Numbered from the stretch's first letter, positions 2,247-6,212 are shown. The stretch is 10,643 nucleotides of DNA from a virus (IMGVR_UViG_2657245521_000002), one strand, 5' to 3'. Notes: generated by a model from the letters alone, not told the origin. Made by a program: numbers and translations.

Positions 2247-2599
2247 TACGCCTCCGATGTAACAGTCGTTATTCCATAAAGAGTGTCGATTTCAGCGGAA
2301 AACATGACACGTCGGGTCGTGGTATCCAGCGTCGTATTGAAAGAGAGGATTGATTTAACGCCCTGCGTTTCGAGGATGCGCTTACGGATCGCCAGGTTGT
2401 AGGTTTCCGGCTTCTGCTTACCGAGTACGGACTGGATCCACGGAGTCCCCTCGGTGGTGTCGAGAAACCATTGCCCATACCACAATTCGAATCGCGTTTT
2501 TACCGCCTGCGCCACGGCCTCCGGTGAGTTAATCAGCCAGGTGTCATCACCGCTGCCAAAGGTGTAATCGCCATCGGCGTCTTCACGTCTGTATCGCAT
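2246..2599 (-). CDS. baseplate wedge protein, gpW/gp25-like (117 aa)
   Basis: ATG at 2597-2599 overlaps the spike TGA (TGATG). A 117-aa protein between the spike and J-like genes; size matches P2 gpW (115 aa). Confidence 0.6.
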   Translation of the reverse strand: MRYRREDADGDYTFGSGDDTWLINSPEAVAQAVKTRFELWYGQWFLDTTEGTPWIQSVLGKQKPETYNLAIRKRILETQGVKSILSFNTTLDTTTRRVMFSAEIDTLYGITTVTSEA

Positions 2600-3351
2600 C
2601 AGTTTACCCCGTCGGTACTGCTTCCACCGCGCTGAACACCACCATGAGTGTGCGTATCATCGATTGGCTTGCCGTTAGCCTTCACGCTCCCCAAAAACTC
2701 AACAGCACCAGTGATTTTTGAAGCCACACCAGAAACCACAGACCCCACCATGCCCCCCATCCAGGTTAACAGGCCATGAATGGTTACTTTCTCAGAAAAA
2801 TCAGCCAGGGGGGCAACCACATCAAGCCCCCCCGGAGCGACAATTTTAATTTTCCTGGTATCAGGATTAAGCTCAAAATAGGTGCTGCCGTCGTCACTAC
2901 GCAACTGTGTGGCACTGGTATTAATACCGCTAATCTTCCTAGCCTGCGACTGGGGACCGACAATACAAAACGCATCCGATAAATCATGCATTCTGTCATC
3001 AACCGTCTCCTGTATCCCGCCGCTCTGCCACCAGAAATCAATACAACGATCGGCAAAAACGACAAGACACTCATCCCCAGCTTTTACCGGAAAAGTCAAC
3101 GTACAGCCTCCGCCGCGCGGGAATACCACTGGCACATCCACCAGCAATGGGTAATTTTTGGTAATGCGGTTACCGTCGTTATCCTTTTCAACTGACCGGA
3201 TAGCTGGCTGCACAACCGCCGTCACCGCGTCAGGATCGAATGACTGAATAATGCCAGGCAAGGCGACACGGATCTGGTTCTTTGTTGTTTCCCGTTCAGA
3301 TTTAAATGTTTCGGCAAGATCGCCACTGCGGGTCTGGTCAGTTACTGCCAT
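2599..3351 (-). CDS. baseplate central spike protein (250 aa, P2 gpV-like)
   Basis: ATG at 3349-3351 with GGAG 8 nt upstream. First gene of a V-W-J-I series. The C-terminal tip reads DDTHTHGG (H234, H236; nt 2644-2652 verified), resembling the His-x-His metal-binding apex described for P2 gpV-type spikes. Confidence 0.65.
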   Translation of the reverse strand: MAVTDQTRSGDLAETFKSERETTKNQIRVALPGIIQSFDPDAVTAVVQPAIRSVEKDNDGNRITKNYPLLVDVPVVFPRGGGCTLTFPVKAGDECLVVFADRCIDFWWQSGGIQETVDDRMHDLSDAFCIVGPQSQARKISGINTSATQLRSDDGSTYFELNPDTRKIKIVAPGGLDVVAPLADFSEKVTIHGLLTWMGGMVGSVVSGVASKITGAVEFLGSVKANGKPIDDTHTHGGVQRGGSSTDGVN

Positions 3352-3362
3352 TGGTAGGCTCC

Positions 3363-3392
3363 AAAAAGCAAAAAACCCGCCGGGTGGCAGGT
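3363..3392 (-). terminator. putative rho-independent terminator downstream of the moron cassette
   Basis: Minus-strand RNA would read AAAACCUGCC-ACCC-GGCGGGUUUUUUGCUUUUU: a 6-9 bp GC-rich stem (one G-U pair) with a 4-nt loop, followed by U6 and U5 tracts. It sits in the only sizeable intergenic gap, between the 170-aa stop (3412) and the spike ATG (3351). Confidence 0.5.
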
Positions 3393-3411
3393 TTTATCTC
3401 ATGAAGAATGA

Positions 3412-3924
3412 CTATCGGTGGATAGTATTAAAGTATTCAGAAAGCTGATTATCAGTTATCAAACACAACTGCATCAAATAAATAGAGTATTTCAATAACT
3501 TTTCATCACGAACGGGGGCGGGACGTAAATACTTCCCGCCGTGAAAGAGATTATTTCTTATATACGGGATCTGCTTTAATGCTTCAGCAAGAGAATGAGG
3601 TTCGATTGGAGGTTTATCCTCCCACGAAAAATCATGCCTCTGCTGCTTCACAGGTTGCTGACATAGATACTCAACTGCCCTATCGACATTTCTATTTCCA
3701 GTAGGATATAAAGGCCGCGTATCATCAGTAGCGTAGCGGCTCCAGTCAGCACCGATTAGATAATTTCTACGATCAGTTTTTTTGAAATTAATTCTTTTTA
3801 ACGCATATTCGAAACGCGAAAAATAATTAAAAAACCTTATAACAAGAGTAATATCAATTCCGCCGAGAAGTTCCTGAAAGTCAGGGTCTTGAAATGAATT
3901 CAAAGGATCATCATCAACTGTCAC
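3412..3924 (-). CDS. hypothetical cytoplasmic protein, 170 aa, low GC, with R-x4-H (HEPN-like) motif; moron gene
   Basis: Start (GTG at 3922-3924, or the TTG 7 codons downstream) overlaps the TGA of the 111-aa gene. Hand-counted GC is about 38% over 3421-3900. Residues 123-128 read RNNLFH (nt 3541-3558, verified codon by codon). No signal peptide or transmembrane segment. Followed by a terminator hairpin. Confidence 0.55.
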   Translation of the reverse strand: MTVDDDPLNSFQDPDFQELLGGIDITLVIRFFNYFSRFEYALKRINFKKTDRRNYLIGADWSRYATDDTRPLYPTGNRNVDRAVEYLCQQPVKQQRHDFSWEDKPPIEPHSLAEALKQIPYIRNNLFHGGKYLRPAPVRDEKLLKYSIYLMQLCLITDNQLSEYFNTIHR

Positions 3925-4256
3925 TTGCTGCTCACTTTTTTACACGGGAAAGATCCAATGATTTTCGGCGCGTCCATGCTGTTCTGCAGCAGCTGGACGT
4001 TCAGGAAAGCTTTTCCGTTACGTTTCACAAACTCAAAGCCGTAATTGTTACCATCACGGGAAGGCATCAGGCCCATGTCCATTTTCATGTTTGAATAGTC
4101 ACCATCTTTTCCCAGAAATTTTATCTTCTGTGATGTGACAGTTTCACCGTTAATAACAGTCATTCCGTCACCGGTCATCGTGTAGTTGCCGCACTGAATT
4201 GCAGCCATCGCCGGAGCAGTAACCATCATAACTAACGCCAAACATAACCGTTTCAT
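3921..4256 (-). CDS. small exported protein with Sec signal peptide (111 aa; moron gene, function unknown)
   Basis: ATG at 4254-4256 overlaps the hub-gene TAA (TAATG), with an AGAGGG Shine-Dalgarno 6 nt upstream. The N-terminus MKRLCLALVMMVTAPAMA followed by AIQCG is a textbook signal peptide with an A-x-A signal peptidase I site; there is no lipobox. The mature protein is about 93 aa with two Cys (near the N- and C-terminus) and is Gly/Asn/Lys-rich. Not a tail structural protein. Confidence 0.6.
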   Translation of the reverse strand: MKRLCLALVMMVTAPAMAAIQCGNYTMTGDGMTVINGETVTSQKIKFLGKDGDYSNMKMDMGLMPSRDGNNYGFEFVKRNGKAFLNVQLLQNSMDAPKIIGSFPCKKVSSK

Positions 4257-5320
4257 TAAAGCCCTCTTTCCCTCGCTGATGAGGAAACAAGATCCGCCGC
4301 GCCACGCGCTTCACACATCATATCCATGTACCACGCCTGGCCCCTTGTGTCGCCAGTGTACATAATCCCGCGCACAATATAAACGCCATCCGTTGCGATG
4401 CTGGCAGGCTGCGATGTGGTGCCGCTGAGCGTGATATTTCCGTCCGTGTTCTGGTCGGTGATCTGACCACCAGCCATCGCAATATCGTTGTTCGACAACG
4501 CGGTACGATAGACGGAAGCCTGATCCAGCTGAATGAGCCCGTTAACCCGGATGTTCGGATTAATAAGCGCGCGGACGTTTACGCCGTTACCGATAGTCTG
4601 CTGCGGCATTCCAATAAGCCCGGTAGCGCTGTTGAGCACAATCGCTTCGTGAACATATTCGTTATTCACCACCATCTGGCGCTGACCGTCCACGAATTGC
4701 CATGTTGCGCCACATTGTCCGGCTACGTTATCCATTAGATGCCGCGTCATGCCAAAGAGTACCCGCCCCCGGGGGAATACAGTAGCAGGCATTTCAGGCG
4801 TCAGGCCTTCGGTCGCGCCTTTGGCTTCGAAGTCTTTCATCAGCGCACGGTTCACATCAGCGACCGTGTAACCGGCAGCCAGCGTCTGTGAGGTTATACT
4901 GGTAGCAAAAGCCAGATCAGTATCTGCTGCCTGAATCAGGACGTAGGTATCAACCGGACTGTCTTTTCCTGTGACCGAGTAGCGAATTTCACCGCTGAAA
5001 ATCAGTCCGTAGTTGCGGCCATCTCTCTGGCCCACGTCCGCCGCGTCAACTTCCCGCACGGTCCCTACGTCGCTTGCTGACACCTCCGGCGCGATACCGT
5101 CGTAACCGGCAATCAGACGCACTTTCGAAAACTCCTGCCCGGTAATTCGGTTCACAGTATCTGCCGAGAGGTTATAAATTTTGATAGTCCCTACCCGGGA
5201 CGCGCTGCTGATGTTGAACCAGTCGATCGTAAAGGTGACTTTGAAATCACTTAGCTCAATTCCCTGACCGTTCCCGTCCACAAGCTGCAGCTCGAAATGT
5301 CTCATCCAGTTCTGTGACAT
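4256..5320 (-). CDS. baseplate hub / late-control-D-like protein (354 aa; P2 gpD / Mu gpP family by position and size)
   Basis: ATG at 5318-5320 with GGAG 7 nt upstream. A 354-aa protein in the D slot after the tape measure, U-like and X-like genes. The call rests on synteny and size, not on a verified motif. Confidence 0.5.
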   Translation of the reverse strand: MSQNWMRHFELQLVDGNGQGIELSDFKVTFTIDWFNISSASRVGTIKIYNLSADTVNRITGQEFSKVRLIAGYDGIAPEVSASDVGTVREVDAADVGQRDGRNYGLIFSGEIRYSVTGKDSPVDTYVLIQAADTDLAFATSITSQTLAAGYTVADVNRALMKDFEAKGATEGLTPEMPATVFPRGRVLFGMTRHLMDNVAGQCGATWQFVDGQRQMVVNNEYVHEAIVLNSATGLIGMPQQTIGNGVNVRALINPNIRVNGLIQLDQASVYRTALSNNDIAMAGGQITDQNTDGNITLSGTTSQPASIATDGVYIVRGIMYTGDTRGQAWYMDMMCEARGAADLVSSSARERGL

Positions 5321-5625: not shown

Positions 5626-6212
5626 TAGCCGCCCCCCAGTAATGACGCCACGTTACCCGTGATGCTTTTCAGCAGTGAAGTATCTGGAGGCTTTGTGGTT
5701 TTGTTGCCGCTGTTCTGTACCGCCGACGTGCTGGCCCCTTCCTTCATGTTGGTTTTATCCGCGACGGTAATCTGCTGTGTCCGGGAGATAATGACCTCCC
5801 TCAGGGTGAGGACGGCGGACAGGACGTTTTCGGTTGTCTTGTCCGTCGTCACTTCCAGCGCCCGGATCAACATGTTGCTGTACAGCCGTTTACCGGTTAC
5901 CACATCGAAGGGGATACGGCTTTCCTGCAGACCCAGTAGCTCCTGATACGTCTGCTGAGGACTCAGGCCGAGCAGGCTGGTAGCCGTCAGGTTACTGGCA
6001 AAATCCAGCAATGCGCCGCCACCGGCGAAACCAACCTCCATCACCACTTCTGACGGTTTTTTATAGGCATGATCAGCGACAGCGGCCCCGACCTCTACCG
6101 GATGCTCTGTTATTTCAAGCATATCTGTATGCTTCTCTGAAATAACAACACTGGGAACAATCATTCCTATTTTTCTGCTCTGCTGATGAAAAAGTGTAGA
6201 GAGAATATCCAC
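5625..6212 (-). CDS. tail/baseplate protein, 195 aa (post-tape-measure position, P2 gpU-like by synteny)
   Basis: Start (GTG in the ORF track) overlaps the tape measure stop and is preceded by a GGTGAGGGTGGG Shine-Dalgarno-like tract. Size and position match the U slot of a P2 T-U-(X)-D block. No motif was recognised. Confidence 0.45.
   Translation of the reverse strand: MDILSTLFHQQSRKIGMIVPSVVISEKHTDMLEITEHPVEVGAAVADHAYKKPSEVVMEVGFAGGGALLDFASNLTATSLLGLSPQQTYQELLGLQESRIPFDVVTGKRLYSNMLIRALEVTTDKTTENVLSAVLTLREVIISRTQQITVADKTNMKEGASTSAVQNSGNKTTKPPDTSLLKSITGNVASLLGGG

Follow-up and report, generated by a model that had tools for sequence, protein, structure and literature searches.

The HepS protein (STM14_3211), encoded by the Salmonella prophage Gifsy-1, was shown in 2026 to be a solo HEPN abortive-infection protein, and its inactive tetramer, its activation by a tail-tip protein and its cleavage of the tRNA anticodon loop are all proven (PMC13043305). 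A tail-activated HEPN system, Tha-1/Tha-2 of Staphylococcus aureus prophages, was shown in 2024 (PMC11087260). A 2013 survey of the HEPN superfamily (Anantharaman et al.) describes an R-x4-6-H motif with N, D or H directly after the R, located where helix 3 ends and running into the loop to helix 4; an upstream acidic residue, typically in the form E-x3-[KR], placed in helix 2; and a four-helix up-down core with a frequent insert between helices 2 and 3 (PMC3710099). Reported here is a 170 amino acid (aa) open reading frame found in a stretch of 10,643 nucleotides (nt) from the virus IMGVR_UViG_2657245521_000002, this whole stretch being referred to as the window. The reading that best accounts for the data, with a probability of about 0.6, is that the protein family is a divergent HEPN branch and that the prophage gene in the window encodes a solo abortive-infection ribonuclease (RNase). 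It is based on a conserved set of E, R and H residues, a helical fold nearest to that of HEPN proteins, the status of the gene as cargo, and a solitary, defence-rich distribution.

The 170-aa open reading frame and its motifs

The open reading frame and the codons of its two motifs are as follows.

3412..3924, minus strand: HEPN-like cargo gene, 170-aa open reading frame with a GTG start; RefSeq WP_001551481.1 'hypothetical protein'; phrog_19013
3541..3558, minus strand: codons of R123-N-N-L-F-H128, the predicted catalytic R-x4-H, followed by G129-G130-K131
3796..3810, minus strand: codons of E39-Y-A-L-K43, an E-x3-[KR] in the block F-S-R-F-E-Y-A-L-K and predicted second active-site element

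The match to phrog_19013, a PHROGs group of unknown function, has an E-value of 1.3e-17. The GTG start shares bases with the TGA stop codon that ends the upstream open reading frame (GTGA), and the start position is the same in homologues. RNNLFH is the sole R-x4-6-H of the protein. An earlier note on this DNA had assigned the open reading frame to 3412–3924 and RNNLFH to residues 123–128 (nt 3541–3558), and these coordinates are confirmed; it placed the motif about 45 residues from the C-terminus, the computed distance being 42. The protein was also said to be without signal peptide or membrane segment, in agreement with a maximum 19-residue Kyte-Doolittle mean of 0.99, and the gene to be the most AT-rich stretch of the window, in agreement with positions 3401–3800 having the lowest GC (0.390) of all 400-nt segments. 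The gene displays a GC content of 0.384 and a GC at third codon positions (GC3) of 0.339, compared with 0.45–0.54 and 0.44–0.64, respectively, in the 12 other genes.

The same note considered the chance rate of an R-x4-6-H to be sizeable, and it is. In 20,000 shuffles of the 170-aa protein, R-x4-6-H appears in 63%, R-[NDHQ]-x3-H in 7% and R-x4-H in 29%; because of this last rate, R-x4-H in one sequence is not beyond chance. The motif is taken as real because its conservation, and not its occurrence in a single sequence, exceeds chance.

Comparison with HepS, Tha and Abi proteins

In its probable working the protein most resembles HepS; its catalytic segment is nearest to the Csx1/Csm6 type and its overall fold to the minimal HEPN/HepT proteins. 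Like HepS, it is a small single-domain protein with a canonical R-x4-H, encoded by a prophage accessory gene that has no conserved partner or inhibitor, and its homologues occur across distant bacteria; the logic to be expected would also be that of HepS, with an inactive oligomer, activation by a phage protein, and RNA cleavage. In a comparison made by description only, no sequence relationship to HepS was detected and the position of the motif differs (R100-H105 in HepS, R123-H128 here); the Gifsy-1 record of strain LT2 shows no open reading frame with R100/H105. HepS has its place between the replication and the antirepressor genes in a lambdoid siphovirus, the window gene in the hub-spike interval of a myovirus.

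The similarity to Tha lies in the proposed role, a prophage HEPN RNase that guards the lysogen, Tha being triggered by the tail proteins of incoming phages. In Tha the motif, R265/H270, is situated behind a large N-terminal region, and the gene is part of the cI operon and needs the antisense-encoded inhibitor Ith. In contrast, no inhibitor gene or antisense arrangement is evident at the window gene.

The lactococcal-type Abi HEPN proteins (AbiD/AbiF, which form Abi_2, and AbiV) are single-gene phage-resistance proteins, as is proposed here. Abi_2 is the Pfam family most often matched, although weakly, by members of the family reported here (4 of 142, best E = 0.027). Membership in Abi_2 is rejected because the score is below the gathering threshold; the window protein itself has no match, and Abi_2 proteins are larger.

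Conservation

A database search gave 27 homologues. In an alignment of 25 homologues, R123, N124, N125, L126, F127, H128, G129 and K131 are invariant and G130 nearly so, and the N-terminal block F-S-R-F-E plus K43 is likewise conserved among these first homologues. When 142 homologues are aligned, mostly 25–38% identical to the query, the sole invariant columns are E39, R123, H128 and G129, with N124 and K43 each at least 90% conserved. Both E39-x3-K43 and R123-N-x3-H128 are conserved, and therefore selection has kept exactly the two signature motifs of HEPN RNases.

Predicted structure

An AlphaFold2 model of the window protein, produced with the 25-sequence alignment, has a predicted local distance difference test score (pLDDT) of 91.4 and a predicted template modelling score (pTM) of 0.85. 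It displays helices at positions 25–44 (containing E-x3-K), 78–89, 112–127 (with R-x4-H at its end), 137–157 and 159–166; a loop at 128–136 follows helix 112–127, and small hairpins are found within 45–111. The model of a 29% identical member, P0027, has a pLDDT of 91.1 and the same layout, with R111-H116 on helix 99–115 and the next helix at 127–147. The predicted fold is all-alpha with a four-helix up-down core. In both models the R-x4-H, which in the window protein carries the polar N124 directly after R123, lies where helix 3 ends and the loop starts, and E39-x3-K43, with its invariant E39, falls in the first long helix of both predictions.

HEPN proteins are the top-ranked structural matches for both models. 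The matches are listed with the score for the window protein followed by that for P0027.

1wwp, TTHA0636, HEPN: 5.4; 6.1 (root mean square deviation 2.4 A over 87 residues)
6aay, Cas13b: 5.4; 5.7
7ae2, HEPN toxin: 5.2; 5.8
8xdj, HEPN toxin: 5.1; 5.8
1jog, HI0074: 4.9; 5.9
5yep, HepT SO_3166: 4.7; 5.4

The minimal HEPN/HepT proteins in this list (1wwp, 1jog, 7ae2, 8xdj and 5yep) are similar to the window protein in size, in the four-helix core and in the R-x4-H that ends helix 3. AbiA and 1wol are lower-ranked matches of the P0027 model. A Foldseek search of the PDB showed no match at E < 2.7. The earlier note had suggested that the motif is compatible with HEPN and had named structure prediction as a check; the helical bundle with its four-helix core and the HEPN proteins as best structural matches, together with the conservation, support the suggestion.

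Sequence similarities to HEPN nucleases

The window protein has no match in Pfam, NCBIfam or PADLOC, and a phmmer search of the PDB with it yielded nothing above noise (KaiC and a histidine kinase, E about 1). The family profile, built from 25 sequences, gave a hit in the PDB at E < 0.1 only for the Marinitoga Csx1-Crn2 constructs (E = 0.027), and Csx1-Crn2 was the only chain at E < 0.7. RNNLFHGGK aligns with WRNSVAHGGR and the alignment extends through the next helix. The aligned residues are R401 and H406 as numbered from the alignment, and these build the composite catalytic site of Csx1-Crn2 (PMC11317161). The family is like Csx1-Crn2 (PDB 8y6z, 8y7f; PMC11317161) in that R-N-x-x-x-H-G-G, the loop and the long helix are in residue-for-residue register, in a match (E 0.027–0.12) that covers only the C-terminal 60–70 residues. 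Csx1, which functions in type III CRISPR, is regulated through a fused CARF domain that senses cyclic oligoadenylate, whereas the window protein has neither sensor domain nor CRISPR context.

Scans of 142 members against 24,736 Pfam models gave weak matches of single members to Abi_2 (four), HEPN_Apea (two) and HEPN_Swt1 (two), which are three of the seven Pfam families matched by more than one member. In PADLOC (5,027 models), members show weak matches to CARF_HEPN models (five member-model pairs) and to Cas13a. Individually insignificant, these weak matches appear to converge on one superfamily, unlike noise. A PADLOC match of two members to HEC-05 is probably spurious because HEC-05 is a BrxU/GmrSD-like protein. 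Alignment of the family profile by hhalign with three single sequences of HEPN-like neighbours was not significant, with R-N-x3-H in register in two of the three.

The protein could also be a helical enzyme or binding protein outside the HEPN superfamily, its conserved Arg, His and Glu being coincidental and its likeness to HEPN arising from the common shape of four-helix bundles. This is quite unlikely. HEPN proteins rank at the top for two models made from sequences that are 29% identical, both HEPN motifs occur at the expected place in the secondary structure and with the residues that HEPN proteins prefer, and the weak matches come from three independent libraries yet converge on HEPN nucleases.

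Family size and distribution

An exhaustive profile search shows 2,392 clusters (50% identity) at E ≤ 0.001, with 606 at ≤1e-30, and nearly all consist of 150–190 aa. At 90% identity, a word-indexed search shows at least 6,002 clusters; those listed are all unnamed or 'hypothetical' and none has a Pfam domain. The family is spread over the bacterial chromosomes of many phyla, plus one archaeon. It appears to be undescribed, because no Pfam, NCBIfam or PADLOC model represents it, its names are all 'hypothetical' and its function in PHROGs is given as unknown, and it appears to be a new family of the already known HEPN kind. Two relatives, P0047 (332 aa) and P0055 (650 aa), are fused at the C-terminal end to DUF6884, a YaaA-like domain with predicted nucleic-acid binding. 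Other fusions (P0064, P0084, P0134 and P0187) display N-terminal regions that have no Pfam match or that lie outside the Pfam scan.

Of 5,426 complete E. coli genomes, 25 carry the gene itself, in every case in the chromosome and with ≥99% identity. Relatives are present on 29 IMG/VR contigs, where the neighbours include spike, hub, tail-chaperone, tape-measure, tail-fibre, sheath, integrase and CI-repressor genes as well as a HamA defence gene; in species genomes, more than 427 stretches match the family. Klebsiella phage ST101-KPC2phi6.1 (locus L094, positions 3971–4489) carries a 30% identical member in its tail-gene region, directly after a DUF6246 protein. This phage is unrelated to that of the window, and it is a second, independent case of the family among tail genes. 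The L094 member is followed by an opposite-strand helix-turn-helix (HTH) gene and an HNH/Bro-N protein.

A search for a conserved operon partner within three genes on either side at 76 loci gave none, families recurring in at most 2–3 cases. Of the 51 same-strand genes next to family members, three encode type I restriction S subunits, two integrases, two Abi_C and two HEPN proteins; CAP12/Pycsar TIR, GIY-YIG, DUF4238, SMC-like ATPase and MtlR-like proteins occur in single cases. P0015 is flanked by AbiV, TIR, Mrr and a type ISP enzyme, P0022 is located after a STAND NTPase, and P0016 after a pair consisting of an HTH protein and an ImmA-type peptidase. Taken together, such solitary, variable and defence-rich settings are typical of a stand-alone gene for defence or conflict.

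Direct neighbours are often HEPN-type or R-x4-H proteins themselves. AbiV is found at L006 and Abi_C at L033 and L075, and MtlR-like neighbours at L081 and L082 carry RNEAAH or RNEFAH. The neighbour at L093 contains RIRNPFVH and is part of a family of about 130–190 aa with 34 homologues and no Pfam domain.

The pair HEPN-MNT (HepT-MntA) was considered and rejected because there is no MNT partner, the neighbours in the window being a signal-peptide protein and baseplate genes. Among the 51 adjacent genes of homologues, the Pfam HEPN family PF05168 occurs twice, and no nucleotidyltransferase family is present among the top 25 listed.

The hub-spike junction

All long open reading frames of the window are on the minus strand and constitute a temperate myovirus tail/baseplate module. 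In gene order, its features are the following.

9282-10427, minus strand: sheath
Between sheath and tape measure, minus strand: tube and chaperone
6212-8218, minus strand: tape measure
Between tape measure and hub, minus strand: two small baseplate proteins
4256..5320, minus strand: baseplate hub, the upstream boundary of the slot; phrog_196, E = 2.3e-88
3921..4256, minus strand: 111-aa open reading frame with a signal-peptide-like N-terminus, phrog_3443; its stop overlaps the start of the HEPN-like gene
3362..3395, minus strand: terminator-like GC-rich hairpin (3395-3372) and T-run, 17 nt past the stop of the 170-aa open reading frame
2599..3351, minus strand: baseplate spike, the downstream boundary of the slot; the identical RefSeq gene is a membrane-puncturing spike protein
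After the spike, minus strand: W-like, J-like and wedge genes

The identity of the spike is also seen in a Pantoea prophage, where the homologous position matches the spike N-terminal and Apex Pfam domains. Escherichia phage vB_EcoM-606R2 matches the window with 99.99% identity over 10.2 kb, and a prophage carried by E. coli 15.TR.026_OXA is just as close. A single difference, at position 4684, separates the window (G) from vB_EcoM-606R2 (A, over 10.2 kb) and from the 15.TR.026_OXA prophage (A, over 5.5 kb). Codon 213 of the hub is CAG (Gln) in the window and TAG (amber) in both of these, and the amber-carrying hub is annotated as two coding sequences or as a pseudogene with an 'internal stop'.

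Relatives from Klebsiella, Yersinia and elsewhere lose their similarity at the 3′ end of the hub gene. Between hub and spike, Klebsiella phage GZ7 carries one DUF4236 gene on the opposite strand, Yersinia phage YP3 a 113-aa and a 266-aa gene, and Salmonella phage SEN34 a 77-aa and a 138-aa gene. The Pantoea stewartii prophage (L005) has a 115-aa gene, a 166-aa member of the family and a further open reading frame (152 aa, or 142 aa on the opposite strand) at this position. Apart from DUF4236 there was no Pfam match at these loci (L011, L012, L013 and L005) for the 266-aa and 138-aa genes or for the further Pantoea open reading frame. In the phage group of the window, the junction of hub and spike is a slot for variable cargo.

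Relatives of the 111-aa protein, with 41–76% identity, are found directly after the hub in YP3, in SEN34 (truncated) and in the Pantoea prophage. The HEPN-like gene is an independent insert because the 111-aa protein is common to several phages while the gene that comes next changes; the foreign GC3 of the HEPN-like gene and the hairpin directly behind it agree with this. The hairpin (3395–3372), situated ahead of the spike start at 3351, gives an RNA fold of −19.3 kcal/mol with z = −2.58. As it is placed within the tail operon, a working hairpin would mean that the spike and later baseplate genes need read-through or a downstream promoter.

Position inside the tail/baseplate operon raises another explanation, that the protein has a structural or assembly role in the baseplate and lies between hub and spike for reasons of function. 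This is extremely unlikely, as the gene is missing from close relatives that share the hub and spike genes, its composition is foreign, and in most genomes its homologues have no phage neighbours.

The 111-aa protein is probably exported, because it has a signal-peptide-like N-terminus (19-residue Kyte-Doolittle hydropathy, KD19, of 2.01). It also displays conserved cysteines, and the GC3 of its gene is 0.545. It may act, after export, in an accessory or exclusion role.

The genes for the 111-aa and 170-aa proteins overlap by GTGA and occur together in the closest relatives (L005, L014 and L100), and many HEPN proteins are toxins of toxin-antitoxin pairs (PMC3710099). The HEPN-like protein could accordingly act as the toxin in a two-gene module, of toxin-antitoxin or addiction type, that stabilizes the prophage, its antitoxin being the 111-aa protein or an unrecognized RNA. 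The 111-aa protein is rejected as antitoxin in view of its signal peptide, of a normal GC3 that differs from that of the HEPN-like gene, and of the unrelated genes that come after it in YP3 and SEN34. An RNA antitoxin or repeat array of the ToxIN-like or AbiF-like kind is rejected as well; tandem, direct and inverted repeats and Rfam matches were sought in 3200–4400 and none was found, so the gene is not taken to be part of an RNA-regulated system. With no neighbour conserved across 76 genomes and no MNT-type partner in the window, such a module is very unlikely.

Proposed mechanism and expression

By analogy with HEPN enzymology, two protomers would pair their R-x4-H motifs to form a composite, metal-independent RNase site. 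H128 would activate the 2′-OH, R123 and N124 would hold the scissile phosphate and E39 would assist, so that cleavage would leave 2′,3′-cyclic phosphate ends. The genomic context and the analogy with HepS and Tha suggest that the lysogen makes the protein as an inactive oligomer. A cue from a superinfecting phage would activate it, the proteins of its own prophage not acting as a trigger, and the active protein would cut tRNA or mRNA, stop translation and abort the infection. W61, P91, Q95 and W101, conserved in the insert, and R139 are candidate residues for binding of substrate or trigger.

Several points weigh against a defence RNase of the HEPN type. In the models the E-x3-K belongs to the first long helix, but the survey places the acidic residue in helix 2 (PMC3710099). 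The start codons of both cargo genes overlap the preceding genes; a promoter-like site was looked for upstream of the 111-aa cargo gene and none was found, and the sole minus-strand promoter-like site before the 170-aa open reading frame lies inside the 111-aa gene and scores 9/12. Given these overlaps and the absence of a clear promoter, transcription of the gene might be confined to that of the late tail operon, and defence would need expression in the lysogen. The expression evidence is the main weakness of the defence reading.

This weakness keeps alive the explanation that an active HEPN RNase serves the phage, in host RNA shut-off, in anti-defence through breakdown of host defence RNAs or signalling nucleotides, or in control of its own late transcripts, and is expressed lytically with the tail operon. 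The chaining of both cargo genes to the hub gene through start/stop overlaps fits late co-expression, the lack of a promoter-like site before the 111-aa gene points in the same direction, and homologues recur within or beside the tail modules of other phages. Members are, however, found mostly in bacterial chromosomes and metagenome-assembled genomes (the more than 427 stretches against 29 IMG/VR contigs), their frequent restriction, Abi and TIR neighbours form a pattern of host defence and not of anti-defence, and the gene is dispensable in related phages. A role in the service of the phage is therefore considered unlikely, and a solo abortive-infection RNase carried by the prophage is preferred.

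Significance

A broader proposal can be made tentatively and with rather less than even confidence: that the family is a large group of stand-alone HEPN immune effectors, possibly with a sensing surface of its own formed by the conserved insert with W61, P91-x-K-x-Q95 and W101, and that the prophage copies in or beside tail modules may sense the tail or baseplate proteins of competitors but tolerate those of their own phage. The group would take in at least 6,000 clusters (90% identity), found in the majority of bacterial phyla and in some archaea. If true, it would represent a new defence family, possibly with a new trigger logic.

The advance is incremental and not conceptual, as the fold and the chemistry are established and so is the idea of a solo HEPN defence in prophages. 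Its relevance rests mainly on the size of the family and on the recent proof, with HepS and Tha, that a solo prophage HEPN protein can be a complete immune system, sensing and killing alike. If the protein is active, the family would be a widespread new branch of the HEPN immune repertoire, the hub-spike junction of the myovirus group of the window would be a cargo hotspot worth mining, and the gene would provide an annotation model for thousands of 'hypothetical proteins'.
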